In this document: piece after piece, positions 2,867-58,886 of the stretch
How positions within the stretch are numbered: the stretch's first letter is position 1
Layout: each line of letters begins with the position of its first letter
Source: a virus
Virus record (IMG/VR): IMGVR_UViG_3300010371_000036
Location: 8,289 to 72,288 of that record
Length of the DNA: 64,000 nucleotides
Reading direction: 5' to 3' (one strand)
Translations under genes and position numbers: made by a program
The notes under the pieces: generated by a model
What the model was told of the DNA's origin: nothing
The model's input: the letters and a program-made list of their open reading frames with translations, nothing else
Databases searched by the model: none

Positions 2867-3783
2867 TTCGCACCTCTCAGCTTCCAGGTCGAGTGCTCGC
2901 GCCACCCGTCGTGCTCGAGGACGCCGGCGCGCCGGAGCTCGAGGAGGCGCCCGTCGAGCCGCGAGCGGGGGATCCCGAGCGCCGCGCGGATCGCCGCGCT
3001 CCCGGAGGAGCCGGCGCCGCGGAGGTACTCGACGATCCGCGCCTTCTCCGCCTCGATCCCCGCCCGGCGCCCGGCCCGGGTGTAGGACGGAACCCGGGTT
3101 CCGTCCGCGGGGCGGACCCTCGGCATCCGCGCCGTCTCCCGCGCGTCGACGAGCGCCTGAGCCTCCCGGAGCGGGACGCCCTCGAGGTAGAGCCCCGCGA
3201 CCTCCTCGGCCCAGGCGTCGGCCTCCGCGTCGAACTCCTCGCCGAGGAAGTCGCTCGCCCGCCCCTCGCTCTTCCGCGAGTCCTCCCCGCCGCCGTTCTC
3301 CCCCTCCGCCTCCGCGAAGGAGGGGGCCTCGTTCATCCGCTCGCGGAGGTAGTCGACGAACGCCTCCCGCTCGCCGGGCGTCAGCTTCCGGAGGAGCCGC
3401 TCGAGGGCGCGGACCTCGAGCTGTCGGACCCGCTCGCGGCTCATGTTCATCAGGCCGGCGATCTCCTCGAGCGCCGCGCCGCCCCGGTCCGCGACGTCGA
3501 GCGCGCACGACTCGGGCATGTCCTCGACCTCGCGCGACGGGAAGTTCCAGACGATCGTGTCGCCGCGCACCCCCGCGACGTCGAGGTAGAGGTGGTAGCG
3601 ACACGAGACCATGGGGCACGGCCGGCTCGTCCCCCGACAGTCCTCGCGGCCGGCGGGGAGCGCGTGGTCCGTCCCGTCCCGGAGGACGGGGAGACGCCGG
3701 CGACTCCGCCAGACCCCGGAGTCGTCCCCCCGGACCCTCTCGCGCCGCGGGGCGCCCGCGCGGGTCCTCCTCGCGGCGCTCAC
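2863..3783 (-). CDS. Cys-rich sigma70 region-4 HTH protein with C-terminal winged HTH
   Basis: EDC..SRPCPMVSCRYHLYLDV...NFP...ESCALDVADRGG.LEEIAGLMNMSRERVRQLE. Likely GTG start at 3783 (GTGA overlap). Confidence 0.7.
   Translation of the reverse strand: MSAARRTRAGAPRRERVRGDDSGVWRSRRRLPVLRDGTDHALPAGREDCRGTSRPCPMVSCRYHLYLDVAGVRGDTIVWNFPSREVEDMPESCALDVADRGGAALEEIAGLMNMSRERVRQLEVRALERLLRKLTPGEREAFVDYLRERMNEAPSFAEAEGENGGGEDSRKSEGRASDFLGEEFDAEADAWAEEVAGLYLEGVPLREAQALVDARETARMPRVRPADGTRVPSYTRAGRRAGIEAEKARIVEYLRGAGSSGSAAIRAALGIPRSRLDGRLLELRRAGVLEHDGWREHSTWKLRGAK
3085..3106. repeat. 22-bp palindrome GGACGGAACCCGGGTTCCGTCC, copy 1 of 13 (intragenic)
   Basis: Perfect inverted repeat; read as DGTRVPS in 2863..3783. 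Confidence 0.95.
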
Positions 3784-4130
3784 TCCGACCGGCTCACGGT
3801 CGGGACGCAGTACCCCTCGCCCCCGAAGTCGTCCGCCCGGCCGCTCGGGAGGACGAGCTTCACGGCCGCGCCGCGCGGGTCGCTGTTGAACTTCACGGTT
3901 ACGGGCTTGTCGCGCAGCGTGAAACGAACCCGTCGCTGGAGCCAGATGACCCGGGCCTGGTGCTCCCGCATGTCGACGATCGGCTCGTTGCACTCCCGGA
4001 GGTAGAGCGCGTAGAGCTCCGTCGAGAGGTCAATGAGCCGGCGCGCCAGAACGCCCACCTTCTCCGGGCTCTTCTCGATCTCCGCTAGGACGGCCCCGAA
4101 CTCTGCCACCTCGCTCACCTTGATCGGCAT
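3780..4130 (-). CDS. hypothetical protein
   Basis: Clean ORF with CGCGGCA motif 14 nt upstream. Confidence 0.65.
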   Translation of the reverse strand: MPIKVSEVAEFGAVLAEIEKSPEKVGVLARRLIDLSTELYALYLRECNEPIVDMREHQARVIWLQRRVRFTLRDKPVTVKFNSDPRGAAVKLVLPSGRADDFGGEGYCVPTVSRSE

Positions 4131-4151
4131 CGTGCTGACCTAGTTGCCGCG

Positions 4152-4877
4152 CTAGTCACGAATGGCGACCCACCCGGCGAAGTTCATCCAGCGCCAGAAG
4201 CAGTCGACGGCGCGGAACCCCGCCTGCCGGAGGATGTCCTCGTTCCAGCGAGCGGTCACCGGGACGAGGACCCCCTCGAGCGCGCGCCGCTTGCGCTCGA
4301 TCTCCTCGCTGCCGTACCCGTTCGCACCCTTCAGCTCGTGGTAGCGCCCGACCATGAGGGAGTCGACGTCCGCCGACTCCCCGAGCACCTTCTCGACGAG
4401 CACGAACACGCCACCCGGCGCGAGGCGCTGGTAGACGTCCCTCACGATCCCCTGGCGATAGTTGATCGGCACGAACTGGAGCGTGAGCACCGAGAGCACC
4501 GCGGCGCACCCTGAAGACCACGCCCGGTCCGCCGGCTCGCGGAGATCCCAGTCGCGGACGAGGACGTTCTGGCGACCCTCGAAGCGACGCCGGAGAACGT
4601 CGAGCATCGGTGGCGATCGCTCGATCGCCCAGAACTGCCGCACCGCCGACGACCTCTCGACGAGGGCCGCGATCGCGTCCCCGCGCGAGCTCCCGAGGTC
4701 GACGACGTCGCCGGGCAGCACGTCGAGGAACCCCATCGTGATGTCCTCGACGGACCGGCGCATGACGCCGTACTGCGGGATCGACCGCTCGAGCATATCC
4801 GGGAAGACGTCGACGACCCCGGCGTCGAACTCCCACTTCTCACCGGACGGGACGTGCTTGACGCTTGATTCACTCAT
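4152..4877 (-). CDS. cmoA: carboxy-S-adenosyl-L-methionine synthase CmoA
   Basis: WEFDAGVVDVFPDMLERSIPQY, DLGSSRG, TLQF, LAPGG.FVLVEK, HELKGANGY..EEIERKR.ALE, AGF, NF match E. coli CmoA ([22 protein letters not shown] ... [22 protein letters not shown]) as I recall it. ATG 4877 overlaps the asnB-like stop (ATGA). Confidence 0.92.
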   Translation of the reverse strand: MSESSVKHVPSGEKWEFDAGVVDVFPDMLERSIPQYGVMRRSVEDITMGFLDVLPGDVVDLGSSRGDAIAALVERSSAVRQFWAIERSPPMLDVLRRRFEGRQNVLVRDWDLREPADRAWSSGCAAVLSVLTLQFVPINYRQGIVRDVYQRLAPGGVFVLVEKVLGESADVDSLMVGRYHELKGANGYGSEEIERKRRALEGVLVPVTARWNEDILRQAGFRAVDCFWRWMNFAGWVAIRD

Positions 4878-7635: not shown

Positions 7636-7660
7636 CGAGGATCAGAACTGGAAGTGGCAT
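7337..7660 (-). CDS. chorismate mutase (AroQ/type II)
   Basis: VEEARRDLDAIDAAIVSLLRIRLRKSIAIAHRKAALGVAVYDPERERVIVERV fits the AroQ consensus R..ID.ID..I..LL..R......I...K....P.D..RE. Codon third positions are GC-rich in this frame. Confidence 0.8.
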   Translation of the reverse strand: MPLPVLILDAQVEEARRDLDAIDAAIVSLLRIRLRKSIAIAHRKAALGVAVYDPERERVIVERVEAGAVRDLYGGLVAGCRAAGEAAVSSPVDGGDPSAPADGSQGR

Positions 7661-8172
7661 CGGGGGCACTCCCGCGCGAGGTGCATCCCGCCCGGCTCGA
7701 GGTTCTTGAACTCCGGCGGGGCGCTCGGGGGCTCGATGCGCGCCAGGAGCAAGTCGAGGTCCTTGTCCTCGTAGTTCGTCGCGAGGAGGTCCCCGTCGTC
7801 GCGGAGCGCCTTGAGCAGCGACGCGAGCTGCACGTCGTCGTAACTCGCGAGGTCGCTCGTCCGGTTGTCGAGCGCCAAGATCTTCCGGGCCTGGCGCTCG
7901 GTGAGCGAGTGGAGCTCGACGGGGATCTTCTTCATCCCGAGCTCCTTCGCCGCCTTCCAGCGGTGGGAGCCGACGAGGATCTGATTCGTCTCCTGCCAGA
8001 CGAACACCCGCCCGTAGAACCCGACCTCCTCGATGCTCCGCTTGATCGCCGGGACGTTCCCGCGCCGGGCGTTCTCCGGGTGGGGGGCGATTGCGTCGAT
8101 CGCGACGACCTTCTTCACCCCCTCGAGGATCTGCGGGATAGGCGCCTTCGTCTTCTTCTCAGCTCTCGCCAT
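7642..8172 (-). CDS. ParB/Srx-like N-terminal domain protein with C-terminal CxxC
   Basis: IAPHPENAR, IKRSIEEVGF, ILVGSHRWKAAKELG, LDNRTSDL; ends ECPRCHFQF. This type commonly accompanies phage DNA-modification genes. Confidence 0.8.
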   Translation of the reverse strand: MARAEKKTKAPIPQILEGVKKVVAIDAIAPHPENARRGNVPAIKRSIEEVGFYGRVFVWQETNQILVGSHRWKAAKELGMKKIPVELHSLTERQARKILALDNRTSDLASYDDVQLASLLKALRDDGDLLATNYEDKDLDLLLARIEPPSAPPEFKNLEPGGMHLARECPRCHFQF

Positions 8173-8211
8173 GTGATTACGCTTCAGTCTGCTGCGCGGA
8201 TACCCCCGTCG

Positions 8212-8784: not shown

Positions 8785-9209
8785 GGCTCGTACTTCGGGA
8801 GCTTCGGCGCGCCCGGGTCATAGGGCCCGCCCTTCGTCTCGAAGAAGAGCGTCGGCGCCTCGTCGTTCCGCGCGTAGCGGATGTAGGAGAGGAGCTCCCT
8901 CATCAGGTCGGAGCCGAGGACGGCCTGGAGCGCGATCCGCTCGATGGGGGAGACCGCCCGCTCGAGCGTCACGACGACGTGCTGCCGGCCCGGCTTCCCG
9001 CTCGGTGAGGGCCTCACCACGTAGGTGAGCGGGACGTGCTCCCGGAGCTTCGCGACGCGCTCGAGGAAGAACTCCCACGCCTCCGCGGAATCGATGTCGA
9101 GAAAGAGCTCGCGGGCGCGGGGCTTCACGACGACGCGGCCCTTCTTCTCGGCGTCGCTCTCCGCCTTCTCGAGGCGGTCGTAGCCACTCGTCGCTAGGTC
9201 GCTCGCCAT
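8781..9209 (-). CDS. hypothetical protein
   Basis: Clean coupled ORF (LFLDID...HVVV motif). Confidence 0.65.
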   Translation of the reverse strand: MASDLATSGYDRLEKAESDAEKKGRVVVKPRARELFLDIDSAEAWEFFLERVAKLREHVPLTYVVRPSPSGKPGRQHVVVTLERAVSPIERIALQAVLGSDLMRELLSYIRYARNDEAPTLFFETKGGPYDPGAPKLPKYEP

Positions 9210-11717: not shown

Positions 11718-12200
11718 TCACGAGACGCCTACCCTCTCCATCACCAGCTCGACGAACGCGACGAGCTTCTCCCGGTCCGGGACGTTCGCGGCGCGCGCCA
11801 GGGCGACGACGACGTCGCGGTGCCGCGCGTGCGGCCTCTTCTCCCGCAGCGGGAGGGCGACGAGCGCCTTCCTCCCCCGGTCGACCCGGACCGCGAGCGC
11901 GCCCGTCCCGGCGGCGACCTCCGCGACCCGGCGGACCTCCTCCTCCGGTACGCCCTCGGGCGGGGCGACCCAGACGATCGCGCCGTCGACGTCGAAGGGC
12001 GTCCGATCCCAGGCGTGGTGGCCGGGGCCGATCGTGACGAGCGGGACGGCCCCGACGACGGGCCGGGACTCGAGACGGAACCCGGGTTCCGTCCGCGGGG
12101 CGGGGAGGTCGCCGTCGAGGAGGTCGCTCTCGATCGGGGGGCCGAGCGTCTCGGAGAGGACCTCGATCCGGGGCGCCGGCTTCTTCGGCTTACGGGCCAT
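11718..12200 (-). CDS. hypothetical protein (possible SbcD C-terminal-like)
   Basis: MARKPKK... lies between sbcD- and sbcC-like genes and contains the palindrome read as RTEPGFR. Confidence 0.55.
   Translation of the reverse strand: MARKPKKPAPRIEVLSETLGPPIESDLLDGDLPAPRTEPGFRLESRPVVGAVPLVTIGPGHHAWDRTPFDVDGAIVWVAPPEGVPEEEVRRVAEVAAGTGALAVRVDRGRKALVALPLREKRPHARHRDVVVALARAANVPDREKLVAFVELVMERVGVS
12073..12094. repeat. 22-bp palindrome copy 2 (1 mismatch, intragenic)
   Basis: AGACGGAACCCGGGTTCCGTCC. Confidence 0.9.
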
Positions 12201-19524: not shown

Positions 19525-22410
19525 CTATGCCGCGGGCGTGGAGCCGGCGATCGCGTTCGCGACGGCGCGACGGAGCTCCGGCGAGTCCGCGACCGCGACG
19601 TCGGTCTGGTGCGCCGCGACGACCTCGCCGCCGGGGCCGAGGATCCGGAGCTCGACCCGGCGCGGCCCGGGGTGGGCGAGGAGGACCGCCTTGACCGCCG
19701 GGAGCCTCGCCCGGAGGCTCCCGAGGACCTCGACGAGGAAGGGGCCGTCCGCCGGCGCGGGCGCGGCCTGGGCGACGGGAGGGGCCGCGAAGAGGTCCCC
19801 CTGACCCTCCGGCGCCGGGCGCGCCTTGCCGGACGGAACCCGGGTTCCGTCCGGCGCGAGCTCGAACGCGTTCGGCTTCCGCCGCCGGTCCGCCTTCGGC
19901 CGGACCCGGAGGAACCGGGCCCAGTCCCGGAGCCGGAGCTCCTCGACGCCCAGCCCCGGCTCCGCGGGGAACGCGGCCTCGAGGACGCGCTGGGTCGCCG
20001 GGTAGATCCGCTTCTCCCAGAGGTAGTAGCGGTCGCACTCCCCGGCGTAGTCGACGGCGGGGATCACCCTCATCGGCGAGACGTGCCCGTCGACGACGAC
20101 GTACGGGACCTTGACGCCCTCGACCATCTGCTCGCCCCGCCCCCGGAGGATCTTCGCGACCTGGACGTGCGCCGAGTCGGCGGGCTCCTTGCCGTCCGGC
20201 CGCTGCTTCTTCGCCTTGTCGTACTCGCGGAGGCTCTTCGTCAGGCTCTGGGCGTTCGAGACGTCGTCGACCGGGAGCGGGTCCTCGAGGACGTGGCACC
20301 TCATCGCCTCGATGAGCGGGACGAACGCGGCTGGGTCCTCGGAGCGCTCGAGCATCAGGAGGTCGATCACCTGCTTCTGGAGCCGGCGGGCGATCCGGTT
20401 CGTGTCGCCCCGCCGGTACTCGAGGCCGCGGATCTCCGGCTTGCCGCGCGCCGGCGGGATCGCGTCCCAGACCTTCCCGCAGTCCCGGCAGGTCATCGTC
20501 CGGACGTCGACGCGCCCGGGGCCGACCTTCCCGTCGCGCTCCGCGTCGCAGGAGCACGTCGCCGTCCCCTTGTAGAACGCGTAGACCGCGGCGTAGTTCT
20601 TCTTCGAGACGAGGACGAGCCGCTCGAAGCACTTCTCGTAGGCGAGCTCGATGAAGTTCTGCGCGCAGCCGACGCCCCGGACCGCCTCCGGGTAGAGGTC
20701 GACGTTGCACGACCGGACGAACTCCTCGAGCCCCGCGAACGTGAGCTCCGGCGCCCCGGCGCGCTTCTCGAAGAACGCCGAGTCGGTATCCGAGTAGATG
20801 GCGAACATCCCCCGACCCTCCGACGCGTGGAGCGTCTTCTGGATCAGCCAGACGCCCGTCGTCGAGACGCTCTCGGCGACCCGGACGTCCGAGAACCGGG
20901 AGTGCGGGCTCCCGGCAATCCCGTAGAAGATGTTGACGACGACCTTGTACGCCGCCGAGAGCCGCCCGGCGGCGACCCACTCCGGGCTCCCCGGCGGGAG
21001 CGACGCCTGGAGCTTGGTGAAGTGCTTGCGGCGACCCTTCATCTCGGCGACGGCGCCGGAGAGGAGGCCGACAACGTCCTGCCGGAACCCGACCCCCGTC
21101 GCCGGCGCCCGGGCGCGCCCCGGGGGGACCGGACCGTTCACCGGCACCATCGGGTCGAGCGTCTCGGGGCTCATGTTCCACGTCTGGATGATCGACGGGT
21201 ACATGCCGGAGAAGTCGACGACGTGGACGTTCTTCCGGATCCCCCGGACCTGGGGCTCGAGCACCCAGGCGCCGGCGAACTTCTTCCGGTCCGCGTCCGG
21301 GAAGGACCACGGCCGGTTCGGGAAGCGGATCCCGCGCTCGACGCCGACGCGCAGGAGCCAGCCGTCGACGAACGTGCTCGGCGTCGCCGAGTCGGTGTCC
21401 GAGAAGACGCGGCAGACCTCGCAGACGCTCGCGTTCAGCGCGAGGTAGCCGGTCGCCGCCTCGAGCTTCGGCAGGAGGAGCGCGTCCTTGTCGCAGTACG
21501 CCGCCATGCGCTCGCGCTCCGCGCCGCCCGCCTCCCACGCCTCCCAGGTCTTCCGGGCGTCGAAGTCGTCCTTCCCTTCGCCGAGGACCTCCTGCGCGAC
21601 GAACCCGAGCGAACGGGAGGTCTTCTCGTCGCCGCTCTCCGCCGCCGGCTTGTTCATCCGGTCGTAGACCTCGGCGAAGTCGATCCAGAGCCAGCGCCGC
21701 GGGTCCCGGATCCGCGCCCCGACCCGCTGCGCGCGGAGCGTGACGACCGGGAAGTCGAAGAGGTCCCCGAACCACGCCGCGACCTGGTCGAACCACTCGA
21801 GGGCCTCGAACAGGAGCTCGAGGAGCCGGCGCTCCGCCTCGTCCGTGTCCGCCGAGAGGACGCCGCGCGCGACCGTCATCGGCGCCGCCGCGAAGCGCGG
21901 GTTCGGCCCGGCGGAGAGCCGGCAGCCCCCGTCGACCGCGAGCGACCAGCAGAGGACGCGGGCCTTGCCCTGCCGCGCGACCGCCGGCTGCACGCGGCTG
22001 TCGGTCTCGATGTCGAGGTAGACCCGCCGCGGCGTCCCGACGAGCGCGCCCGTCTCGGAGAAGAAGCGCCGGATCGGATCGATGTCCGCCTCGAAGGTCT
22101 CGATCCCGAGCGAGTGAAAGAACCCGTCCCGCGCGTGCGCCTTCCGCCGCCACTCGTCCGAGGTCCAGCAAATCCGGTAAAACTCCCCCTCCTCGCGCAC
22201 GCCGGCGACGAACTCGCTCGCCTTCAGCTCCCGGAGGAGCTCCGCGGGGACGTCCCGCCGGCGGACGAAGGAGCTCCACTCCGCCGGGACGCGCCGCGCC
22301 ATGCGCTGGTCCCGCGCGTCCCGGTAGAGGAGGAAGAGGTCCCTCCCCTCGACGATACCGTTGAGGAACCGCGGCTGCTCCGCGGCGGACGGAACCCGGG
22401 TTCCGTTCAC
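19525..22410 (-). CDS. family B DNA polymerase with 3'-5' exonuclease
   Basis: ExoI YLDIETD, ExoII FGDLFDF, ExoIII YCDKD, motif A VDFSGMYPSII, B KVVVNIFYG, C YSDTDS, KKNYA, RGLEYRR. Confidence 0.95.
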   Translation of the reverse strand: MNGTRVPSAAEQPRFLNGIVEGRDLFLLYRDARDQRMARRVPAEWSSFVRRRDVPAELLRELKASEFVAGVREEGEFYRICWTSDEWRRKAHARDGFFHSLGIETFEADIDPIRRFFSETGALVGTPRRVYLDIETDSRVQPAVARQGKARVLCWSLAVDGGCRLSAGPNPRFAAAPMTVARGVLSADTDEAERRLLELLFEALEWFDQVAAWFGDLFDFPVVTLRAQRVGARIRDPRRWLWIDFAEVYDRMNKPAAESGDEKTSRSLGFVAQEVLGEGKDDFDARKTWEAWEAGGAERERMAAYCDKDALLLPKLEAATGYLALNASVCEVCRVFSDTDSATPSTFVDGWLLRVGVERGIRFPNRPWSFPDADRKKFAGAWVLEPQVRGIRKNVHVVDFSGMYPSIIQTWNMSPETLDPMVPVNGPVPPGRARAPATGVGFRQDVVGLLSGAVAEMKGRRKHFTKLQASLPPGSPEWVAAGRLSAAYKVVVNIFYGIAGSPHSRFSDVRVAESVSTTGVWLIQKTLHASEGRGMFAIYSDTDSAFFEKRAGAPELTFAGLEEFVRSCNVDLYPEAVRGVGCAQNFIELAYEKCFERLVLVSKKNYAAVYAFYKGTATCSCDAERDGKVGPGRVDVRTMTCRDCGKVWDAIPPARGKPEIRGLEYRRGDTNRIARRLQKQVIDLLMLERSEDPAAFVPLIEAMRCHVLEDPLPVDDVSNAQSLTKSLREYDKAKKQRPDGKEPADSAHVQVAKILRGRGEQMVEGVKVPYVVVDGHVSPMRVIPAVDYAGECDRYYLWEKRIYPATQRVLEAAFPAEPGLGVEELRLRDWARFLRVRPKADRRRKPNAFELAPDGTRVPSGKARPAPEGQGDLFAAPPVAQAAPAPADGPFLVEVLGSLRARLPAVKAVLLAHPGPRRVELRILGPGGEVVAAHQTDVAVADSPELRRAVANAIAGSTPAA
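19831..19852. repeat. 22-bp palindrome copy 3 (in polymerase C-terminal linker)
   Basis: Perfect copy; read as DGTRVPS. Confidence 0.95.
22387..22408. repeat. 22-bp palindrome copy 4 (at polymerase start, 1 mismatch)
   Basis: GGACGGAACCCGGGTTCCGTTC; read as NGTRVPS. Confidence 0.9.
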
Positions 22411-24452: not shown

Positions 24453-27400
24453 TCAGCGAAGCCCGAACGCCTTCGCGGCGCGCACCGGGTCGAACACCGC
24501 CACCTCCGCCCCGCCGGCGAGGAGGCGGTCCTCCTCCGTGATGACGGAACCCGGGTTCCGTCCGGCCGCGAACGCGTCGAGTTCGACCGCATCGGCGACC
24601 CGCGTCGCTTCCGCGATCGCGTCGATCGCCGCATAGTCCCCCCACCCGGCCGCGGAGAGCGCAGCCTGGATCTCGTCCTCGGCGTCCGCCTGCTCCCGGT
24701 CCGCCTCCGCCTGGAGGACCCCCGGGAAGACGCTGAGGAAGGGGCTCCGCTCGACCGGGCGGACGCCCGTGCGCGTCGCCATCTCGTTCACGTAGGAGAC
24801 GACGAGGTGGTCGCGGGCGCGGGTCGCCGCGACGTACATCAGGCGGCGCTCCTCCTCGAGGTCCCCCTTCGCGTGCGGGAGGATCGTGTCGTTGCAGCCG
24901 ACGACCCAGACGACCGGCCACTCGAGGCCCTTCGACTTGTGGACCGACATCATCGTGACGCACCTATCGCCGCGCTTGCGCTTGTTCAGCTCCGCCTCCC
25001 GGACCTGGACCTCGACGAAGTCGAGGAACTCCGGGACGGACTCGAAGGAGCCGGCGACGCGCTGGAGCTCCCGGACGTTCGCGCCGTGGCTCCCCTCGAT
25101 CGACTCCTCGCCCTCCTCCTTCTCGAGCCACGCGACGTAGTTCGTCCGCCGGACGAGCCGGTCGAGGACCTCCGCCGCCGTCGCCTTCCGCGTCCGCTTC
25201 GGGAAGACGCACTCGTGCTCGACGCAGCCGCAGCAACCGGACTCGCAGCCGCAGACCGAGCAGGCGGGCGGGGGCTGGTCCGGCAGGGTCTCGCCGACCG
25301 GTAGCCCGTTCTCGACGAGGTCGGAGACCATCTCGAGGAGCTCGACCCACTCCCGGACGCTCTCCCTCTGCCGCTGCTGGATCCCCGCCTGCTGCGCGGC
25401 GATCTTCGTCACGTCGGTCCAGGGGAGCGCCGCGCCGTACTGCTCGCGGACGGCCATCACCTTCTCGACGAACCGCGCGCCGAGGAACCGGAACGGCGCG
25501 TTGATGCAGCGCTTGACCGCGTCGCCGTCCTTGTCGCGCCCCGTCGCGAGCCGGAGGTACGCGAGGAGGTCCTTCACCTCCTTGCGCTCGTAGAAGTTCA
25601 CGCCGCCGATGAGCACGTAGGGGATCTTCGCGCGGAGGAGCGCCTCCTCGAGGGCGCGGCTCTGGGCGTTCAGCCGGAAGAGGGCCGTCACGTCGGCGAG
25701 GGACGCCCCCTCCGCCTGCCGGCGCCGGCAGAACTCGACGAGCTCCTCGGCCTCGTCGTCGAGCGTGTCCGCATTGACGACTTCGACCCGGCCCTCGACC
25801 CCGCGCTCGGCGCTCATGTCCTCCGGGAGCCGGTGCTTGCCCTGCCGGATGACGTCGTTCGCCACGCGAACGATCGCGTCGCCGGAGCGGTAGTTCCGCT
25901 TCATCGTCACGATCTTCGCGCCCGGCCACGCCGTCGCGAAGTCGGTGAGGTACTTCGGGTCGCTCCCCCGGAAGGCGAAGATCGACTGCCCCGGGTCGCC
26001 GACGATCATGTAGTTCCGGTGGTCGCGGGCGAGGAAGGACGCGATCATGATCTGGATCGGGTTCGCGTCCTGCGCCTCGTCCTGGAGCACGTAGTCGAAC
26101 TTCGCCGCCCAGCTCGCGCGCACGTCCTCGCGCTCGGAGAAGAGGCGGACGACGTACATCAGCATGTTGTCGAACGTGAGGAGCTGCGCCCCCTCGATGA
26201 GCTCCTCCGACTTCGCGTAGACGTTCACGGCCTTCTGGGCCGCCGGGCCGAACTTCCTCCGCGCGAGCTCGAGGGCCCGCGGGTCCGAGGGCCAGAAGTA
26301 GTTCGCCTTACAGACCGTGATGAAGGACCGGACCTTCGTCGCGTCCATGCCCTTCCAGTTCTCGTACTCGTAACCGCCGGCGCGCTTGACGAGGGTCTCT
26401 GCCTGCTTCTTCTCGTCGACCTTCCAGCGACCGTACGGCGTCCCCTCCTCGCGGAGGACGCGGGAACAGAACGCGTGCCACGTCTTCACCTCGGCGCCGC
26501 CGACGCCGAGCTGGCGGATCCGCGCGTCCATCTCGGCGGCGCCCGGGCGGGAGAAGGTCACGCAGAAGATCCGGTCGGCGGAGACGCCGACGTGCTCGAT
26601 CAGGCGGACGACCCGGTGGACCAGGGCGCGCGTCTTCCCACTGTTGTGCGTCACCGTGAAGTCGCCGAGGAGGTAGCGCTGATCGCCGTCGAGCTGAAAG
26701 CCGTAGTAGTCCTCGACGCCGAGAGTCTCGAGCGAGAACCCGGTCCGGAGGACGTTCTTCACCTGCCGGCGCGGGCCCGCCTTCTTCCGCGGGATCCGGC
26801 AGGGGATCTGCTCGACCTCGCCGGAGATGCTCACGCGCCAGTACGTCCCGCCCTGACCGTTCTGGTCCCACTTCTCGCACGGCGAGACGTACGCCGCGAG
26901 ACCGAGACTCCGGGCGACGAAGGCGACGCCATGCGCGAGGTCCGGCGACTTCGAGATGAAGTCGTAGCACCCACCCGAGAGGCTCCCGTCCGTATCGAGG
27001 ATCCCGGCGAGGAGTCGGATCCGCGCCGCCGAGCACGCCGTCAGGTACGCCTCCGGAATGAAGCGCGTCCCGCTCGTCGTCCCGAAGAGACCGAGGCGGC
27101 GGAGCGCCATCACGAGCGCGTTATGGTGTCGAGCCTTCCCCTTGTTCGACCCGGCCGAGAGGCAGTAGGTCGCGCTCGTCCCCTCGCCGTCCTTCCGGAC
27201 GGCCAGACCGAAGACCCCCGCCTGGCGGTAGACCTCGTCGACGATCTCCTGGTCCGGCTTCGAGACGCCGACCGAGCACTGCATCGTCCCGTCGCCGAGG
27301 AGGACGCCGAGGAAGTACGGGTCGATCGGGAGCTCCCAGCCGGAGCCGCGATCGAACTCGACGCGACTCGCGCGGAGGAGCTTCCACTCCTTCCGCTTCG

Positions 27401-28216: not shown

Positions 28217-28238
28217 GGACGGAACCCGGGTTCCGTCC
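28217..28238. repeat. 22-bp palindrome copy 6 (abuts TAG stop)
   Basis: Perfect copy. Confidence 0.95.
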
Positions 28239-29910: not shown

Positions 29911-29948
29911 GTCGTCTAGGACCGAACCCGGGTTCCGTCCTAGACGAC
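29911..29948. repeat. 22-bp palindrome copy 7 (29919-29940, 1 mismatch) extended by GTCGTCTA/TAGACGAC arms
   Basis: GTCGTCTAGGACCGAACCCGGGTTCCGTCCTAGACGAC. Confidence 0.9.
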
Positions 29949-31040: not shown

Positions 31041-31062
31041 GGACGGAACCCGGGTTCCGTCC
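31041..31062. repeat. 22-bp palindrome copy 8 (abuts TAG stop)
   Basis: Perfect copy. Confidence 0.95.
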
Positions 31063-31298: not shown

Positions 31299-31811
31299 TC
31301 AGGCGACGAGGGCAGCGGAGATCTGCCGCGCGACGCTCTCGAGGCGGATGAGGCGGCTCGTCGTCCTCCGGCTCCGCGCGACGTGCTCGCCGAGGAGCTG
31401 GGCGAAGAGGCGCGGCAGGTGCTCGACGTCCTCGACGAGGAGGTCGCCGTCCTCGGCCCAGCGGGTCTGAACGACGACGCGCCCGGCGCGGACGACCGTC
31501 TTCGCCATCTCGAGCCGCCCGCGCGACGTGACGACGAGGACCTCCCGGCCATCCCCGCCGCCGCGCGGCTCCGGGAGCGGCTCGTACGGCCGCCCCGCGT
31601 CCTTCGCCGCGAAGCAGCGGGCGCGCGCCGCCGGGTAGCCCGGGGCGACCTCGCGCAGGCCCTTCAGGGTCTCGCCGCCGAGGGCCTCGACGAGCGCGGT
31701 CTCCATCGCGCGGATGGCCGCGATCGCCTCCGCCCTCGCCGACTCCCGGGCCGCGAAGAGCTCGTCGCTTGCGAGGGCGACGTCTCCGAGGAGTTCGGGG
31801 ATCTGGCTCAT
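31299..31811 (-). CDS. hypothetical protein (MSQIPEL...)
   Basis: ATGA-coupled. Confidence 0.6.
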   Translation of the reverse strand: MSQIPELLGDVALASDELFAARESARAEAIAAIRAMETALVEALGGETLKGLREVAPGYPAARARCFAAKDAGRPYEPLPEPRGGGDGREVLVVTSRGRLEMAKTVVRAGRVVVQTRWAEDGDLLVEDVEHLPRLFAQLLGEHVARSRRTTSRLIRLESVARQISAALVA

Positions 31812-32026
31812 GGCTTCGTTTCCTTCTCCCGCACTTTCGCACGGATCTCCCTGGCGCGCCCGAGCAATTCCAGCCGGGTCAGCCAGCGGTCGAACGTCTT
31901 TCGCGACACGTTCACCTCCTTCGCCGCAGCGACCGTGTCTCCCTTGTGCCGTCGGAGCAGTTCCGCCAGTGTCTTTTTCGCCTCCTCGGGCTCGAGAGAG
32001 ACCATGGCGCCGAGCTGGGTAATCAC
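31808..32026 (-). CDS. Fis-type HTH DNA-binding protein
   Basis: LRRHKGDTVAAAKEVNVSRKTFDRWL. Confidence 0.7.
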   Translation of the reverse strand: MITQLGAMVSLEPEEAKKTLAELLRRHKGDTVAAAKEVNVSRKTFDRWLTRLELLGRAREIRAKVREKETKP

Positions 32027-32035: not shown

Positions 32036-33067
32036 CTATGCCGCGCACCGGAATACCGCGTCCGCCAGCGCGACCTGTAGCGTCGCCGGGTCGGAGCGCC
32101 ACACGTCCGCCGCGTCCCACCCCGGCGGGAGCTCGAGGCGCGCGACCCGCGACTGGCGCCGGAGAGCCCGCTCGAGACCCGCCGCCGCCCGGTCGCCGGC
32201 CCCGTCCGGGTCGGTCGCGACGACGACGCGCGGGAAGGTCGCGAGCTTCATCAGCGTCCGGACGTCGATCGCCCCGCCCTCCGACTCGTCGAGGCCGCTC
32301 ATCCCCGCGTAGTCGATCGTCCGGTCCCCGAGCACCTCGCCGGCGCGGGAGACCGCGCGCTCGAGGGCAAGTCCGTTCAGCGCGCCCTCAAAGACGACGA
32401 CCACGTCCCGCAGGCTCGGGCGCCCGCGCTCGACCGGCGCCCAGCGGTGCTCGCCGAAGAGCGCGTTCTTGTCCGGCGACTCCCAGGAGCCGGCGGCGAG
32501 GTAGCGCTTCTCGTGGTCGACGAACGACCGCGCCGCGTAGTTCGCGAGCCGCCCGAGCCGGTCGTAGATCGGCAGGAAGACCCGCCCCTCGAGCCGGCCG
32601 ACGAGCGCGTAGCCGATCCGCCAGCGCCGGACCTGCTCGTCGGTGATCCCCCGACCGAGGACGTACTCGCGTGCGACCGAGTTCCAAGTCTCGAGCGGCG
32701 CGCCCTGCTTCTCCACGCCCTCCGGGAGCGTGATCGCCCCCGGGAGCCGCGCGAGCTCGGATCGGACGCGGAGGAAGGGCTCCTCCGGCTCCGCGTCCGC
32801 GACGTCGCGGACCCAGGCGAGCGCCTCCGCGAAGTCGACGCCCCGGAGGAGCATCGCTAACTCGACGAGGTTCCCGCCGCCCTTACACGAGAAGCAGTGG
32901 AAGCCGCTCCACACCCCGCGGTCGACGCGCGCGAAGAAGTTCTGCCAGGCGTGCGCCTCGTTGTGCCCGCCGTGCGTCGGGAGCGGGCAGCGCTCGGCCC
33001 AGACCCGCCCGCCCTGCCGCCGCGTCGCGACGCCGAGCTTCTCGAGTACGAGCTCCGACTTGCTCAC
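32036..33067 (-). CDS. DnaG-like primase
   Basis: CP..H...FHCFSC.GGN zinc finger, YV..RGI, GRVFLPI, VFEG, TOPRIM DPDGAG. GTG 33067. Confidence 0.85.
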   Translation of the reverse strand: MSKSELVLEKLGVATRRQGGRVWAERCPLPTHGGHNEAHAWQNFFARVDRGVWSGFHCFSCKGGGNLVELAMLLRGVDFAEALAWVRDVADAEPEEPFLRVRSELARLPGAITLPEGVEKQGAPLETWNSVAREYVLGRGITDEQVRRWRIGYALVGRLEGRVFLPIYDRLGRLANYAARSFVDHEKRYLAAGSWESPDKNALFGEHRWAPVERGRPSLRDVVVVFEGALNGLALERAVSRAGEVLGDRTIDYAGMSGLDESEGGAIDVRTLMKLATFPRVVVATDPDGAGDRAAAGLERALRRQSRVARLELPPGWDAADVWRSDPATLQVALADAVFRCAA

Positions 33068-35796: not shown

Positions 35797-38028
35797 CTAC
35801 CGACGACTCCGAACTCCGACGAGCCACTCCTTCCCGGTCAGCCAGCGCGCGCCGTCCCAGACCGTGACGTCGCGGTACCACTTCACGAAGTTCTCGACGG
35901 GCCGCCGGCCGTAGACCGCCGTGTCGAGGAGGTAGGCGAGCCGGCCCTTCTCCTTACCGTCCGCGGACCGGCAGAGCCGGCCCTTCACCTGCCCGAGCTT
36001 CTGGGCGTTGTTCCCCATCGGCGTCGCCGCGACGCCGCGGGCAACGGCGGGGACGTCGATCCCCTCGCCGATCGCCTGGTAGGTCCCGACCGCGACCCGG
36101 AGCTTGCCCTCCTTCAGCCGCGACTTGGTCCGGTCGAACTCCGCCGCCTCCGCGGCGCCGCCGAGCATCAGGCCGCCGGGGATCCCCATCTGCGCGACCT
36201 GCGCGTCGAGGTACCGCGCGTGCTCGACCCGGTGCGTAAAGACGATCACCTGCTCGCCCGAGGCGACCGCGCTCCGGACGAGCGCGAGGACCTGGGCGTT
36301 GCGCGCCGGGTCCGCCGTCATCTTCTCGAGGAGCAGGTTGAAGTCCTGCCGGTACTTGTACCAGGGCGCCGAGAAGCGCGTCGGGACGCACGCGACCTCG
36401 ACGTCGACGATCGACCCGGAGGCGAGGACCCGCTCCTCGGGGATCCGGCAGATCACCGACCCGATGAGGTCGTACGTGAAGAACTCGAGCCGGTCCTTCC
36501 GCGTGTGGTCCGCCGAGAGCCCGTAGCGCTTGCGCGCCCGGATCGGGTCGATCGCCGCGAAGACCGTGTCCGCGGGGGCGCGCTGGACCTCGTCGAAGAG
36601 GAAGACGTCGAACGCGTCGCCGAGCTCCCCGGCGCCGGCGCGGAACCGGTTCGCCATCGTCATCTGCATGCAGAGCGTCAGCGGGCGGATCGTCTCGCGG
36701 TCCCCCTGGATGTGCCCGACCTCCTCCGGCTCGAGCCCGAGCTCCTCGACGGCGCGCTCGCGCCACTGCTTCAGGAGCGCCGTCGAGCAGAGCATCACGA
36801 GCGAGCGCCGCTTGTGGTGGGCGACGATCCCGTAGCCGGAGGTCGTCTTCCCCGAGTTATGGACAGCGACCCCGTTCGCGATAAACGCGTGCGCGTGTTC
36901 GACCTGAAGATCAAACGTCATCCGCTCGCCGGCATACCGGATCCCCCGGACCCGCTCCGGGACGAGCCGTGCCTCGACGTTCCGCTTCGACTCCGTGAGG
37001 TGGAGGCCCCGATGCTCCTCGTGCGTGACGACCTCGAGGTTGTCCGGCTCGTTGTTCAGCGAATCGCCGTCCTTGTGATGTACGACCCACTCCTCCGGAT
37101 CGAGGAACCTTAGGCCCTCGCGGCCGGCCTCGACCTGGCAGAGAAAGTCGAGAAGAGAGAGACCGTTCAGGCGCGCCTCCGCAATGAGGCGATGGAGCGG
37201 AACCGTCCACCCACCCTTCGCCGGGTTCACACCGCGTCGTCCCGCAAACGGATGCTTCCGACAGACCCGGAGACGGTACCAAGGCTTTTTCGATAACCGC
37301 CCGCGCGGAATCCCGCCGTCGACGAGAACGTAGTCGCCCTCAACGAGATCACAGAGTGGGACCCAACCGAACGGGGTTTTGAACCGATGGTCGTCGGTCG
37401 CGAGAACCGGACCGTAACCGCTAACGAGAACCTCGTAGACCGGCTTCAGCCCACTCTCGACCGCGCCCCCGAGACGCGCGAGTCGGACGGTCCCGTCATC
37501 AAAAGGCGCGCGAACGTACGTCGGAATCGACGGATCCCAGATCCGATTCTGGGCACGGCCCCCGTTGAACATCCGGACGACGTGGGAGAGCTTCATCTGG
37601 GAGCCCTTCCCCGCACGGTTTACGCCGATCAGTGCGTCACCGTCGATACAACCCGTCGGGGAGATGACGAGCCCGTGGTCGTGGGCGTCGGTCGCCGCGA
37701 CCATCTCCCGCTGGTAGTCGCGCGGCGCCTTCCGGTGGTCGGGGAAGTCCGGCTCCGGGTGACGCCACGTCCGCCGGTCGTCGAGGACGGAACCCGGGTT
37801 CCGTCCGAGGACCTCCTCGACCTTCGCGAGCCCGCCGCGGGGGACCGTCAGGTTCCCGTCCGCGTCGTGCTCCCAGGTCTTGTACGTCGGCGGCTCCTCG
37901 CCGGCTCGGCGCGGGTCCTTCCCGAAGTTCGGGTTCGCGTGCGTGAACGCGGACCGGATCGCCTGCGCCTGCGCCTCCGAGAGGCTCTCGAGCGGGACGC
38001 GGACCCGGCCGTCGACGACGATCCTCAC
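35797..38028 (-). CDS. SF2 (DEAD/ResIII-like) helicase containing an intein
   Basis: PRDYQ, SPTG|SGKT, FDEVQ, GLSA, EGIDVP, QVKGRLCR. GTG 38028. Confidence 0.9.
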   Translation of the reverse strand: MRIVVDGRVRVPLESLSEAQAQAIRSAFTHANPNFGKDPRRAGEEPPTYKTWEHDADGNLTVPRGGLAKVEEVLGRNPGSVLDDRRTWRHPEPDFPDHRKAPRDYQREMVAATDAHDHGLVISPTGCIDGDALIGVNRAGKGSQMKLSHVVRMFNGGRAQNRIWDPSIPTYVRAPFDDGTVRLARLGGAVESGLKPVYEVLVSGYGPVLATDDHRFKTPFGWVPLCDLVEGDYVLVDGGIPRGRLSKKPWYRLRVCRKHPFAGRRGVNPAKGGWTVPLHRLIAEARLNGLSLLDFLCQVEAGREGLRFLDPEEWVVHHKDGDSLNNEPDNLEVVTHEEHRGLHLTESKRNVEARLVPERVRGIRYAGERMTFDLQVEHAHAFIANGVAVHNSGKTTSGYGIVAHHKRRSLVMLCSTALLKQWRERAVEELGLEPEEVGHIQGDRETIRPLTLCMQMTMANRFRAGAGELGDAFDVFLFDEVQRAPADTVFAAIDPIRARKRYGLSADHTRKDRLEFFTYDLIGSVICRIPEERVLASGSIVDVEVACVPTRFSAPWYKYRQDFNLLLEKMTADPARNAQVLALVRSAVASGEQVIVFTHRVEHARYLDAQVAQMGIPGGLMLGGAAEAAEFDRTKSRLKEGKLRVAVGTYQAIGEGIDVPAVARGVAATPMGNNAQKLGQVKGRLCRSADGKEKGRLAYLLDTAVYGRRPVENFVKWYRDVTVWDGARWLTGKEWLVGVRSRR
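36856..37650 (-). mobile_element. intein (265 aa) with HNH endonuclease in SF2 Walker A
   Basis: Begins CIDGDALI, block B ATDDHRF, HRLIAE...VHHKDGDSLNN..DNL, ends NGVAVHN|S. Confidence 0.9.
37785..37806. repeat. 22-bp palindrome copy 9 (in helicase N-terminal region)
   Basis: Perfect; read as GRNPGSV. Confidence 0.95.
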
Positions 38029-38287: not shown

Positions 38288-38309
38288 GGACGGAACCCGG
38301 GTTCCGTCC
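38288..38309. repeat. 22-bp palindrome copy 10 (abuts TAG stop)
   Basis: Perfect copy. Confidence 0.95.
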
Positions 38310-38527: not shown

Positions 38528-38955
38528 GTCCGTCCGGATGCCGCGCGGGAGGGCCTAGAACTCGCGATCCCGGATCGAGGGAGGGGAGCTAAGCGTTCGC
38601 CTCGCGGGATCCCGAAAACGACTACGCGCGCAGCGACACGCGGAGCGTGTCGCGCTTGTATTCTCGAGCGCAGCGAGAGAATACAAGGAAGAGAGGAAGA
38701 ATCTCCTGACTCTCGCTCTCCTGCGGAGCGCTCCTGCGCGGAGCAGCTAAGGGGATACGGGACTACGCCGAGACCCCCCGTGTAAAGCGAATTCGTGTGG
38801 GGTCACGAAAGTACGCGTCACGACGGCGCAATCCAACTCGCCGCAGAGCTCCAAACGCGTCGAGGGCGCCCGAGCCGTAGCCCGGACGCCCTCTCCCGAC
38901 TCCCGGACGGAACCCGGGTTCCGTCCTCCCCGGGGACGCGGCATCCCCCGGGGGC
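38528..38955. promoter_or_regulatory. divergent non-coding region with hairpins (candidate origin/control region)
   Basis: Strand switch; CGCGGCA motifs facing outwards at 38539-38545 (-) and 38937-38943 (+); hairpins at 38633-38653 and 38655-38687. Confidence 0.55.
38905..38926. repeat. 22-bp palindrome copy 11
   Basis: Perfect copy. Confidence 0.95.
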
Positions 38956-51470: not shown

Positions 51471-51492
51471 GGACGGAACCCGGGTTCCGTCC
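51471..51492. repeat. 22-bp palindrome copy 12 (intergenic)
   Basis: Perfect copy. Confidence 0.95.
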
Positions 51493-57359: not shown

Positions 57360-57370
57360 CGTCGGGGCCT

Positions 57371-58753
57371 TTAGAACTGGAGTGACCCGGGGAGGATCAT
57401 CTCGATGGTCGAGCGCGAGCCGCTCTTCGCGTCCTTCCGGAACTCGCGGCCGAGGACCCAGAGCGGGCCGTTCCAGTTCGCGATCGGCTGCTGGTCGTAG
57501 ACCGCGACGATCGAGTCGACCGCGATCGGCTGGTCGTTCAGGAGGTGGCCCATGATCTCGTAGCGCGCCGAGAGGACCTTCCTCATCCGGAGCGAGAGCT
57601 CGCGCCGGAGGTACGCCTCGAGCTGCTCCTGCGTGTGACTCTCCGGGTCGTAGAGGAACGCCGGCCGCGGCGCGTCCTCGACGAGCGGCGGGAACGCGGA
57701 GGTGATCGGGTCGATGTCGACGAGCGGTACGTCCGGGTACGCGTTGAAGATGGCCGAGTTGTCGGCGTTCACCGCGAGGTTCACGATCCCGGCGCGGAGG
57801 CGGCTCTTCGCGAAGTTCCCGCCGGCGCCGAACCCGCTCGCGTAGATGACGCTCGGCTGGTCCCTCCGGCTCCTCTCGAACGTCCCGCGGACCGCGTTGT
57901 TCTGCGTGCTCCTCGAGTCGAGGGCGTGAAAGATCCCGTAGCGCGGGCCCTGCTCGAAGTTCGGCGCCGCCACCGAGATGGTCTCCCCGTCGACGAAGGG
58001 GCGGATCCAGAGCCCGAAGCGCTGGGCGATCCGCGACGTGAAGGCGAAGAGCCCCTCGTTCGGGTACGGCTTCTCCTGCCCGAGCGTGAAGTGCCGGGTC
58101 ACCTTCCCCTTCCGCGTCGTCGCCTTCCTCTGGGAGAACGCCGCCTCCTCCGCCTGCCGGAGCGCCGTCTGCGCCGCCGCCACCCGCTGCCGGTTCGTCG
58201 GCGAGTCCGGGAGCGCGGAGGCGAACTTTAGGTTCTGCTGCGCCCTCTGGACCGCCGCCGACGTCGACTGCTCCCCCGCCGTCTTCCCGGTGATGACGTT
58301 CCGGTTCGCCACCGTGTCCGCCGCCACCGTGATGTTCGGGTTGATCGTCGAGTACGCGGCGACGACGAGGTCGAGGAGCGTCATCGACGGGAGGAACTGG
58401 ACCCGCGGGTCGACCTGCCCGTCGACGGCGACCGAGAGCCAGTCGCGGCAGGAGCAGTGAACGATGTTCCCCTCGCTCGCCGAGAAGCTCGCCGACGGGG
58501 TGTCGAGGATCTGCCGCGCCTGAACGTTCCCGCGGACGCACGGCTCGACGACGGCGCCGGGGACGAGGACCGAGAGGTCGCGCGCCGAGAACTCCCGCTG
58601 GTCGAGCGTGAAGGCGAGCGCGTCGCTCGCCTCGAGGTAGTTCTCCCGGTAGCTGTAGTCGAGGAACCGGTCGAACTCGACGGCCGTCGACCCGCTCGTG
58701 ACCCGGATGGTCATCTCCCCGAGGACCGGGTTCGTGACGTCGTTCAGACCCAT
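57371..58753 (-). CDS. baseplate hub protein (Mu gp44/gpP-like)
   Basis: Y....D.LAFTL, C.CRD...VD, RFGLWI.P..DG; position. Confidence 0.7.
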   Translation of the reverse strand: MGLNDVTNPVLGEMTIRVTSGSTAVEFDRFLDYSYRENYLEASDALAFTLDQREFSARDLSVLVPGAVVEPCVRGNVQARQILDTPSASFSASEGNIVHCSCRDWLSVAVDGQVDPRVQFLPSMTLLDLVVAAYSTINPNITVAADTVANRNVITGKTAGEQSTSAAVQRAQQNLKFASALPDSPTNRQRVAAAQTALRQAEEAAFSQRKATTRKGKVTRHFTLGQEKPYPNEGLFAFTSRIAQRFGLWIRPFVDGETISVAAPNFEQGPRYGIFHALDSRSTQNNAVRGTFERSRRDQPSVIYASGFGAGGNFAKSRLRAGIVNLAVNADNSAIFNAYPDVPLVDIDPITSAFPPLVEDAPRPAFLYDPESHTQEQLEAYLRRELSLRMRKVLSARYEIMGHLLNDQPIAVDSIVAVYDQQPIANWNGPLWVLGREFRKDAKSGSRSTIEMILPGSLQF

Positions 58754-58864
58754 GGGGCGGCGGACCTCGTTTGCCGGGCCGGGGAGGCCCCTCCGGCGCG
58801 TCTTCGGGCCCGGGGAGTACTCCGGGGGCTCCCGGGGCGCCCCGGGGCCGCCGGCGGGCGGCCC

Positions 58865-58886
58865 GGACGGAACCCGGGTTCCGTCC
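58865..58886. repeat. 22-bp palindrome copy 13 (abuts TAG stop)
   Basis: Perfect copy. Confidence 0.95.

Follow-up and report, generated by a model that had tools for sequence, protein, structure and literature searches.

Short symmetric repeats scattered over phage genomes have been on record since at least the papers on Cluster O and Cluster K mycobacteriophages, with no mechanism established for them. We analysed a 22-bp palindrome that recurs along a 64,000-nucleotide stretch of DNA (the window), which comprises bases 8289-72288 of a 72,288-bp IMG/VR viral record (IMGVR_UViG_3300010371_000036; here G000) from an uncultured soil phage. The nearest described system is the 17-bp dyad repeat (5'-TGTTCGGNNNCCGAACA) of Cluster O mycobacteriophages reported by Cresawn et al. 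2015 (PMC4351075), although the likeness is one of kind only, with no relationship of sequence or phage. According to that report, more than 30 near-invariant copies occur in a ~70-kb genome, in short intergenic gaps, near starts and inside genes; the repeat is not found in host genomes, and its sites are mostly positionally conserved in relatives, with occasional loss (PMC4351075). The authors propose that a dimeric protein binds it and doubt that it has to do with promoters; the function is unknown (PMC4351075).

What the two systems have in common is tens of near-invariant dyad copies spread genome-wide, in and between genes, and not in host genomes. The Cluster O repeat has 7-bp arms and a variable 3-bp spacer (PMC4351075), whereas the sequence here is palindromic and invariant over its full 18-22 bp, including the centre. 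Nor are the phages related to those of Cluster O: they are uncultured, have ~95-kb genomes and carry a module encoding PolB, primase, DnaB, RecA and SbcCD-like proteins. Many of their lineages each repeat a different palindrome with measurably even spacing, and neither feature was met in the part of the Cluster O text available to us (PMC4351075).

Cluster A stoperators are 13-bp asymmetric sites, mostly in one orientation to transcription, bound by the monomeric immunity repressor of temperate phages (PMC6550527), and their motif co-varies with its binder (PMC6550527, PMC9283540). As reported there, up to ~30 near-identical sites lie across a phage genome and the motif is lineage-specific, much as in the phages studied here (PMC6550527, PMC9283540). 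The site here differs in being a perfect 22-bp palindrome, and hence without orientation, which sets it outside the stoperators with their asymmetric sites. The start-associated sequence (SAS) of Cluster K phages is asymmetric, 13 bp long and takes in the ribosome-binding site; it occurs only in the non-structural half of the genome (PMC3203893). The extended form (ESAS) consists of imperfect inverted repeats with a variable spacer, and its inverted-repeat part differs between subclusters; their function is unknown (PMC3203893).

Copies of the palindrome in the window

A pattern search found 13 copies in the window, nine exact and four with one mismatch (12073, 22387, 24542 and 29919), at the positions given in an earlier note made from the sequence alone. 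By comparison, 100 dinucleotide-preserving shuffles gave an expectation of 0.01 copies. Eleven of the 13 lie left of 39 kb, as the note had it, and the record adds three more upstream of the window for a total of 16 (two or fewer mismatches; a reversed control pattern gave none). The flanks of the window copies are unrelated to each other, so the repeat unit is the palindrome alone. Its central CCCGGG is by itself unremarkable, with 112 occurrences in the record, whose DNA is ~71% G+C and whose minus strand holds 85 of 89 called genes. The copies are as follows:

3085..3106, no strand: exact; DGTRVPS, codons 296-303 of 376, in the C-terminal part of a sigma-70 region-4 protein (2863-3993, minus strand)
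12073..12094: one mismatch, at an outermost position; RTEPGFR in the open reading frame (ORF) 11718-12245 (minus strand)
19831..19852: exact; DGTRVPS in the PolB linker, codons 853-860 of 961, directly before the C-terminal QGDLF motif
22387..22408: one mismatch; 6 nt past the stop of gene 22415-23647; NGTRVPS as PolB codons 2-8 if GTG 22410 is the start
24542..24563: one mismatch; GRNPGSV in the C-terminal tail, codons 1083-1090 of 1118, of an intein-bearing UvrD-like helicase
28217..28238: exact; last base is the G of the TAG stop of ORF 28238-28393; T-rich stretch and sigma70-like promoter downstream
29919..29940: one internal mismatch; centre of a 38-bp palindrome (29911-29948), followed by a hairpin and T-run terminator and a shared promoter cassette
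31041..31062: exact; overlaps the TAG stop of the Acb2/Tad1-like gene 31062-31277, followed by a T-run and the promoter cassette
37785..37806: exact; GRNPGSV, codons 75-82 of a superfamily 2 (SF2) helicase, replacing a same-length non-conserved loop of the orthologues in two relatives (G004 and G005)
38288..38309: exact; overlaps the TAG stop of a small helix-turn-helix (HTH) gene, 38309-38527
38905..38926: exact; divergent intergenic region between leftward and rightward genes
51471..51492: exact; intergenic, 10 nt past the TGA stop of gene 51503-52516 and upstream of a 1308-aa gene; orthologous site kept in an overlapping contig (G001)
58865..58886: exact; overlaps the TAG stop of the Mu gp43-like (DNA_circ_N) gene 58886-59932; orthologous site kept in G001

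The copies at 28217, 31041, 38288 and 58865 each share one base with a minus-strand TAG stop, which agrees with the four such overlaps described earlier. As also described, the palindrome is translated in all three frames (DGTRVPS, NGTRVPS, RTEPGFR and GRNPGSV), and codon-position G+C showed that the frame runs on through the in-gene copies. The earlier count of six copies inside genes needs one qualification: the copy at 22387, the supposed second PolB copy, is a gene-boundary copy, because it lies just past the upstream stop and counts as in PolB only if GTG 22410 is a real start. No alternative start codon precedes the conserved PRFLNG of PolB. The true in-gene copies lie in P/R/A/G-rich linkers or tails, in keeping with the suggestion that they sit at termini or linkers.

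Selection acts on the nucleic acid

The exact 22-mer is also present in two other IMG/VR contigs, G001 (50.6 kb, 17 copies) and G002 (18 kb, eight copies), counting up to two mismatches. G000 and G001 are overlapping fragments of one phage kind, with tail-fibre and structural genes 68-77% identical at the nucleotide level, and G001 and G002 overlap in a further part. Among the three we identified 11 pairs of orthologous palindrome positions. The inner 18 bp, including the four central letters, showed no difference in any pair (0/198), and all ten differences fell at positions 1, 21 or 22. By contrast, the flanks (±90 nt) of the same pairs were only 55.6% identical (1101/1980).

PolB homologues among public proteins carry palindrome-coded peptides (DGTRVPS, GRNPGSV, RNPGS, GNPGS, RVPGS and others), all at one linker before the C-terminal QG.LF motif, in differing frames and at slightly shifted positions. 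In the five most distant of 23 aligned homologues there is a gap at this linker. Because the inner 18 bp is unchanged while the flanks have dropped to 56% identity, and because the element is read in different frames at one linker of the PolB homologues, the sites are under strong purifying selection as nucleic acid, not as protein. The earlier argument that conservation regardless of frame reflects selection on DNA or RNA is thus borne out. In the window, the Q-G-x-L-F motif (19525-19830, PolB C-terminus), which we take to resemble a sliding-clamp-binding peptide, is downstream of the linker palindrome and kept in all close homologues.

Each lineage repeats its own palindrome

To find relatives, we searched viral contigs with the PolB alignment and obtained 51 loci; a single PolB query gave none. 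In the closer loci, each lineage repeats its own perfect palindrome. Ten relatives of 81-100 kb were analysed whole, and eight of them have one dominant, lineage-specific perfect palindrome in 14-30 copies:

G004: CTGGGAACCCGGGTTCCCAG, 21 copies
G005: CCCAAACCCGGGTTTGGG, 26 copies
G406: TGGAACTCGAGTTCCA, 24 copies
G407: CCGTCGGTGATCGATCACCGACGG, 19 copies
G408: ACCGCAACACGTGTTGCGGT, 30 copies
G409: ACGGATGATCGATCATCCGT, 17 copies
G410: GAGTCGAGGCCCGGGCCTCGACT, 17 copies
G413: TTCGGAAGATCGATCTTCCGA, 14 copies

Of the remaining two, G411 has six copies of its palindrome and G412 has 13 copies of a quasi-palindrome, CGT(C/T)TACCCGGGTA(A/G)ACG, in which all four half-site combinations occur. The dominant palindrome is self-complementary through its centre in nine of the ten relatives and in the window lineage, the exception being the commonest form in G412, which is asymmetric and has a C·A mismatch in the sense strand. 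The centres differ between lineages (CCGG, TCGA, ACGT).

In eight of the ten relatives, the gaps between copies were more even than chance, with a coefficient of variation (CV) of 0.36-0.60 versus ~0.94 (P <= 0.0103 each), and in G004 and G005 this also held against random draws of gene 3' ends. The structural genes of G000, G004 and G005 differ, yet the palindromes span the whole genomes. No close cultured relatives were found, the best tblastn identities being 26% (PolB) and 25.6% (baseplate-J-like protein), and a search of the open-access literature for evenly spaced or stop-codon-associated phage palindromes found no paper describing this family.

We compared 157 copies from eight genomes with the consensus of each lineage. 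Of the 76 base pairs that depart from it, 51 are in the two outermost pairs and six in the three innermost. In the sense strand, changed pairs gave G·U 23 times versus A·C 25 times, and three of the 76 were compensated. Symmetry stops at the consensus borders (pooled p = 0.56); selection for longer stems in individual copies was accordingly rejected, with only the 38-bp palindrome at 29919 exceptional. The sites are probably read sequence-specifically over their whole symmetric length, centre included.

Occurrence in metagenomes and bacterial genomes

The exact 22-mer was found in 45 metagenome stretches from several projects, and those that align to G000, G001 or G002 are mostly 64-82% identical to them. 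Window positions 28000-33199 were reproduced without difference in an independent contig set of the one run found to contain the stretch, which may be the source sample; no RNA data set was listed as containing it. The presence of the 22-mer in independent assemblies of several projects rules out an adapter or assembly artefact, one of two outcomes that the earlier note had said would overturn its interpretation. The other, an abundant host repeat, was likewise ruled out among the genomes searched. Across 185,579 species, represented by one genome each, a match was found in a single record, a deltaproteobacterial metagenome-assembled genome (MAG). This 8-Mb MAG has just two exact copies, separated by 45 bp, in a stretch of 630 bp that lies between small co-directional ORFs (L017 4226-4292; G003:C6 ~2,324,227-2,324,291), downstream of the gene for an AAA_25 (RepA/DnaB-like) ATPase, and a third, degenerate copy 8 kb off. 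Among 401 genomes of the MAG's class, the 18-mer (one or no mismatch) occurred in three, namely the MAG and two with single, chance-level sites; a reversed control occurred in two.

In the 60 kb around the MAG site, no protein was common with the phage family (E <= 1e-3) except a small HTH protein and one low-complexity match, and the only Pfam names obtained were AAA_25 and AAA_16 ATPases. The region appears to be an integrated element. A 456-aa ORF in it, first taken as a terminase, has no Pfam match and was dropped as such. Separately, the 20-mer of G408 is also present in five small IMG/VR fragments (L173, L181, L182, L187 and L189) without nucleotide similarity to G408, which hints that a given palindrome is shared beyond close relatives.

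Gain and loss of copies

Comparison of close relatives revealed sites present on one side only. Opposite the G001 copy at 47112, G000 has no copy and holds a same-length patch with nine of 20 letters alike, within flanks ~83% identical. The G002 copy at 16913 has no partner in G001, where the length differs by 3 nt, and opposite the G001 copy at 19638, G000 holds a remnant with a central deletion of ~9 nt. The SF2-helicase copy of G004 (WEPGFP) aligns ungapped to PEPDFP of G000, with 11 of 18 nt identical. The G000 copy in this helicase (GRNPGSV) likewise takes the place of an equally long loop, which speaks against an insertion there. As judged from these alignments, copies are evidently gained and lost other than by clean insertion.

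Placement relative to genes

In the window lineage and its metagenome relatives, many copies lie -2 to +24 nt after a stop codon or in the last or first few codons of a gene. In G005, 22 of 26 copies are between called genes, and a stop triplet precedes 14 of 27 by no more than 11 nt, compared with one in the mirror control. G408 has 53% G+C and reliable gene calls; there, 30 of 34 copies are outside genes or at their edge, a stop triplet lies within 11 nt upstream of 22 of 34, and a ribosome-binding site (Shine-Dalgarno) and start follow 7-31 nt downstream of 20 of 34, compared with two in the mirror control. Counts based on self-trained gene calls were used for G408 and G413 only. The start association resembles that of SAS and ESAS, which are repeated phage-specific motifs directly before starts (PMC3203893); here it depends on the lineage, being scarce in the window's own (1/15, 1/17 and 3/9 copies).

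Two other repeated signals occur near the palindromes. A near-identical promoter cassette is present three times on the minus strand of the window (~28090-28160, 29800-29870 and 30914-30985), each starting ~64 nt after a palindrome; it runs from a T-rich stretch or terminator through a sigma70-like promoter (TTGGACA-16 nt-TAG(G/A)(A/G)T) and a GC hairpin to GGAGG, and its -35 element belongs to an inverted repeat, TTGGACA…TGTCCAA. The second is a one-orientation motif, GCGGCATAA(G/C)G, found ~18 times in G005 just upstream of starts, seven of them directly after a palindrome, and also around palindromes in G408 and G002. G000 has it twice, at 32035-32044 (before a gene for a Fis-type HTH protein, described below) and 23674-23683 (before gene 22415-23647). 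It may be a phage-specific promoter or start signal.

A proposed binding-site array on duplex DNA

The earlier note had left three options, a binding-site array, an RNA-processing hairpin and a tiny mobile palindrome. We favour the first, because the consensus is symmetric through its centre, the loop letters are as conserved as the arms, and spacing is even in eight of ten relatives. More precisely, the palindromes may be an array of double-stranded DNA sites for a two-fold symmetric, phage-encoded protein, a reading to which we give a little less than an even chance. Two of the specific forms that the note had suggested fell away, stoperator-like on account of the asymmetry of such sites and parS-like on account of the patchy distribution of ParB_N.

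On the binding-site reading, the 22-bp palindrome would be one lineage's version of a family-wide recognition-site array on duplex DNA, and a symmetric, most likely homodimeric, phage-encoded protein would read each site at full length, centre included. Some 15-30 sites per ~95-kb genome would be kept at fairly even intervals of 3-6 kb and placed where coding allows, that is, behind stops, before ribosome-binding sites and, since the palindrome is stop-free and can be translated, in disordered linkers and tails. The array would serve the genome as a whole, in a task linked to the replication-recombination module, for instance by providing loading or nucleation points for replication or recombination or by organising or insulating the chromosome, and would not be there for promoter-by-promoter regulation. 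Several observations count against this picture. Spacing is not significantly even in the G000 fragment (CV 0.76, P = 0.22), nor in G411 and G412, and the stop-palindrome-start layout of G408 would also suit an RNA-level intercistronic element.

Such an RNA-level element is the main rival, and we consider it unlikely. It would be an intercistronic hairpin, read by a sequence-specific RNA-binding or RNA-cleaving factor, that processes, stabilises or translationally couples long co-directional transcripts. The predicted RNA of the 22-bp unit indeed has a 9-bp stem and a 4-nt loop (~-17 kcal/mol), and the copy at 29919, the only one to be extended, by eight complementary bases on each side, reaches -33.6 kcal/mol (z = -3.7). 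Nearly all genes are co-directional, copies hug stops (the gap is -1 for the four overlapping window copies) and the stop and start associations of G005 and G408 would fit. A precedent is TRIT of M. tuberculosis, described as a sequence-conserved palindrome tied to stop codons (PMC3152330). Yet several copies are deep in essential genes (PolB linker, SF2 helicase and a tail-fibre gene), and a hairpin needs no self-complementary loop such as is found in all lineage consensuses but that of G412. A search of Rfam gave no match for the palindrome, and no known RNA families or tRNAs were found. A hairpin kept for its structure alone would tolerate change in the loop and be enriched in G·U. Because the loop is as invariant as the arms, G·U is not favoured over A·C among changed pairs, few of which are compensated, and the commonest G412 form is asymmetric, with a mismatch in the mRNA sense, the palindromes are, on this comparative evidence, not plain RNA hairpins. 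A plain two-way intrinsic transcription terminator would explain a GC-rich hairpin at gene ends and is the least credible of the alternatives, very improbable in our view. Inspection of the flanks found no T-run or U-tract directly after the copies on either side, so that the stable hairpin alone does not make them TRIT-like intrinsic terminators, and some copies are inside essential genes. At least three or four copies have a T-run or a canonical hairpin and T-run terminator a short way downstream: those at 28217, 29919 and 31041, and that at G001 19638, whose canonical terminator is also present in G000 behind the palindrome remnant only. Because separate canonical terminators or T-runs follow some copies, the palindromes are not the terminators.

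Two further explanations are a selfish element and a host-factor site. A selfish mini-element, similar to repetitive extragenic palindromes (REPs) or miniature inverted-repeat transposable elements or spread by a homing nuclease, would copy itself into tolerated places without benefit to the phage. This would agree with the position of the copies in exactly those places that can take extra sequence (from a stop to the following ribosome-binding site, or in disordered linkers and tails), with gain and loss between close relatives, with the shifting positions and frames in the PolB linker, with the same 22-mer in the otherwise unrelated MAG element, with the LAGLIDADG and HNH inteins that the phage carries, and with the REPs on record inside replication and repair genes (PMC3733652). 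We nevertheless find it improbable. Orthologous copies stay unchanged while their flanks diverge, which means that each site is held by purifying selection instead of turning over; the spacing is too even for random gene 3' ends; gains appear as same-length patches, not insertions; and target-site duplications were not found beside copies. REPs, bacterial interspersed mosaic elements and TRIT are similar in being short conserved palindromes mostly just past coding regions and sometimes in genes, although REPs and TRIT belong to chromosomes, where they number tens to hundreds (PMC3733652, PMC3152330). REPs carry an unpaired GTAG/CGTC tag and often form inverted pairs, and GTAG REPs are linked to RAYT transposases (PMC3733652). 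Here, no conserved unpaired tag stands beside the palindrome, whose flanks are not conserved, and the Y1 (RAYT-type) transposase PF01797 was found in none of five family genomes, three of them complete (a control search matched seven of 14 known genomes; the host genome lay outside the search). On these features the palindrome falls outside the REPs and REPINs; in addition, REP loops need not be palindromic, and the loops here are. Less probable still is a host-factor site, in which the palindrome mimics or titrates the site of a host regulator, nucleoid protein, gyrase or nuclease and lineage differences mirror host differences. The two identical copies in the intergenic region of the unrelated MAG element do resemble an operator pair, but a host regulator should have chromosomal sites of its own. 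The MAG has no further exact copy, and the one match among the species genomes and the chance-level result in its class also disfavour this explanation, although the true host may be unsampled.

Candidate binding proteins and the replication module

Returning to the DNA-site array, G000, G004 and G005 have in common only one syntenic replication-recombination module of 15 families. It includes a RuvC-like resolvase, SbcC- and SbcD-like proteins, a RecA-like protein, PolB, a DnaG-type primase, a DnaB-type helicase, an SF2 helicase and a weakly matching sigma-r2-like protein. Two of the genes concern us here:

31808..32026, minus strand: candidate binder, a 72-aa Fis/NtrC-type HTH protein, directly downstream of the primase gene
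32036..33067, minus strand: DnaG-type primase, conserved beside the HTH gene in each of the 11 family genomes that cover the replication module

The earlier note had put forward four binders, of which the Fis-like HTH protein fared best, being found throughout the family and always beside the primase; the ParB-like protein, the HTH protein at 38309 and the sigma-r4 protein are patchy. An HTH_8-like ORF adjoins the primase gene in G000, G004, G005, G406-G411 and G413, and was found in G412 with the family profile, giving 11 of 11 module-bearing genomes. The Pfam HTH_8 match exceeds the curated cut-off in six of ten further relatives, and the family profile matches the DNA-binding domains of ZraR, FleQ, NifA, NtrC and Fis (E = 1e-4 to 0.3), as well as RacA. 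The predicted model of the 72-aa protein is a five-helix bundle with a predicted local distance difference test score (pLDDT) of 89.9. A homologue (tblastn E = 8e-6) is encoded in the otherwise unrelated MAG element with the identical palindrome, and its recognition helix, VTRRALDGW, resembles VSRKTFDRW of G000. The protein is thus a possible, though doubtful, binder of the palindrome.

Several results speak against the assignment. HTH_8 scores below the curated cut-off in G000 (E = 4e-4), G004 and G005, and the best fold matches, to the NtrC4 and Fis DNA-binding domains, are not significant (NtrC4, Foldseek E = 1.3). The MAG homologue was part of the HTH profile used in the G412 search, which leaves the tblastn match as the only independent one, and the likeness between the recognition helices of G000, G004 and G406 follows their phylogeny. 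Co-occurrence and synteny, on which the proposed role as binder is based, are found equally for all core genes of the replication module. In the five fragments that carry the G408 20-mer, which are only 7-47% complete, the HTH was not found.

Among the other candidates, the HTH protein at 38309 is weak, with no detectable homologue in G004 or G005, and so is the sigma-r4 protein, which of these two genomes has a homologue in G004 only. The ParB-like protein is disfavoured. Plasmid RK2 has 12 KorB operators (OB); these, the parS sites and the Noc-binding sites (NBS) are 13-16 bp long, and parS is shorter than the palindromes here. The sites of the KorB-OB, ParB-parS and Noc-NBS systems are similar in being palindromic, near-identical and dispersed, some of them far from promoters or in genes, and they are read by a dimer that acts at a distance (PMC11790492). 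These systems need a ParB-family CTPase, whereas ParB_N (PF02195) was detected in two of five records (G000 and G005) and not in G001, G002 or the complete G004 with its 21 copies; the window's own protein is a 176-aa stand-alone domain. The palindrome is therefore not assigned to the parS, OB or NBS class, although it has the symmetry of such sites. As to the temperate lifestyle of phages with stoperators, the tyrosine integrase PF00589 was found in none of five genomes, four of them complete, in a search that did not extend to serine integrases, partition-type lysogeny or repressors.

It is conceivable, though improbable, that the Fis-type HTH protein encoded with the primase is an initiator or organiser linked to replication and is loaded at the evenly spaced palindromes. 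Replication, recombination-dependent replication or the organisation of the ~95-kb phage chromosome would in that event proceed from ~25 programmed points, and the sites would be the equivalent, in a bacterial virus, of baculovirus hrs or the origin palindromes of herpesviruses. The site would then co-diversify with its binder as a lineage 'identity code', which could also limit cross-talk between co-infecting relatives. Palindromic sites that are dispersed or lie within genes, and to which dimeric viral initiator or enhancer proteins bind, are also known from baculovirus hrs, from oriS and oriL of herpesviruses and from the lambda ori iterons in gene O; the hrs consist of clustered, imperfect palindromes of 30 bp with restriction-site-like centres, and lambda ori is translated as a protein linker. 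Their proteins and hosts are unrelated to those here. No AT-rich unwinding element was seen beside the copies when the flanks were judged by eye.

The family offers an unusually clean comparative system, with at least ten diverged lineages that each repeat a different perfect palindrome in 13-34 copies, even spacing in eight of them, selection measurable down to the central letters and one conserved small HTH protein. If a binder and its effect were found, this would reveal the way in which a large virulent phage marks or organises the chromosome as a whole and would supply orthogonal protein-site pairs. Were the palindromes RNA punctuation or a selfish element instead, this would explain exact palindromes inside polymerase and helicase genes.

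Other features of the window

On the minus strand, positions 7642-13583 bring together genes for the stand-alone ParB-like protein (7642-8172), the RuvC-like resolvase, an SbcC/Rad50-like ATPase and an SbcD/Mre11-like phosphoesterase. With the RecA-like gene at 14418-15599, they make up what is, by predicted function, a T4-like recombination toolkit.

Both helicases, encoded on the minus strand, contain inteins. The UvrD-like helicase (24453-27809) has a Hint domain and a weak LAGLIDADG match, and the SF2 helicase (35797-38028) has a splicing domain and an HNH endonuclease; the SF2 orthologues of G004 and G005 are ~250 aa shorter than that of G000. Among small, early-looking genes, 31062-31277 (minus strand) encodes a 71-aa protein that matches the Acb2/Tad1 hairpin domain (E = 8.8e-12), which suggests an anti-CBASS or anti-Thoeris nucleotide sponge.

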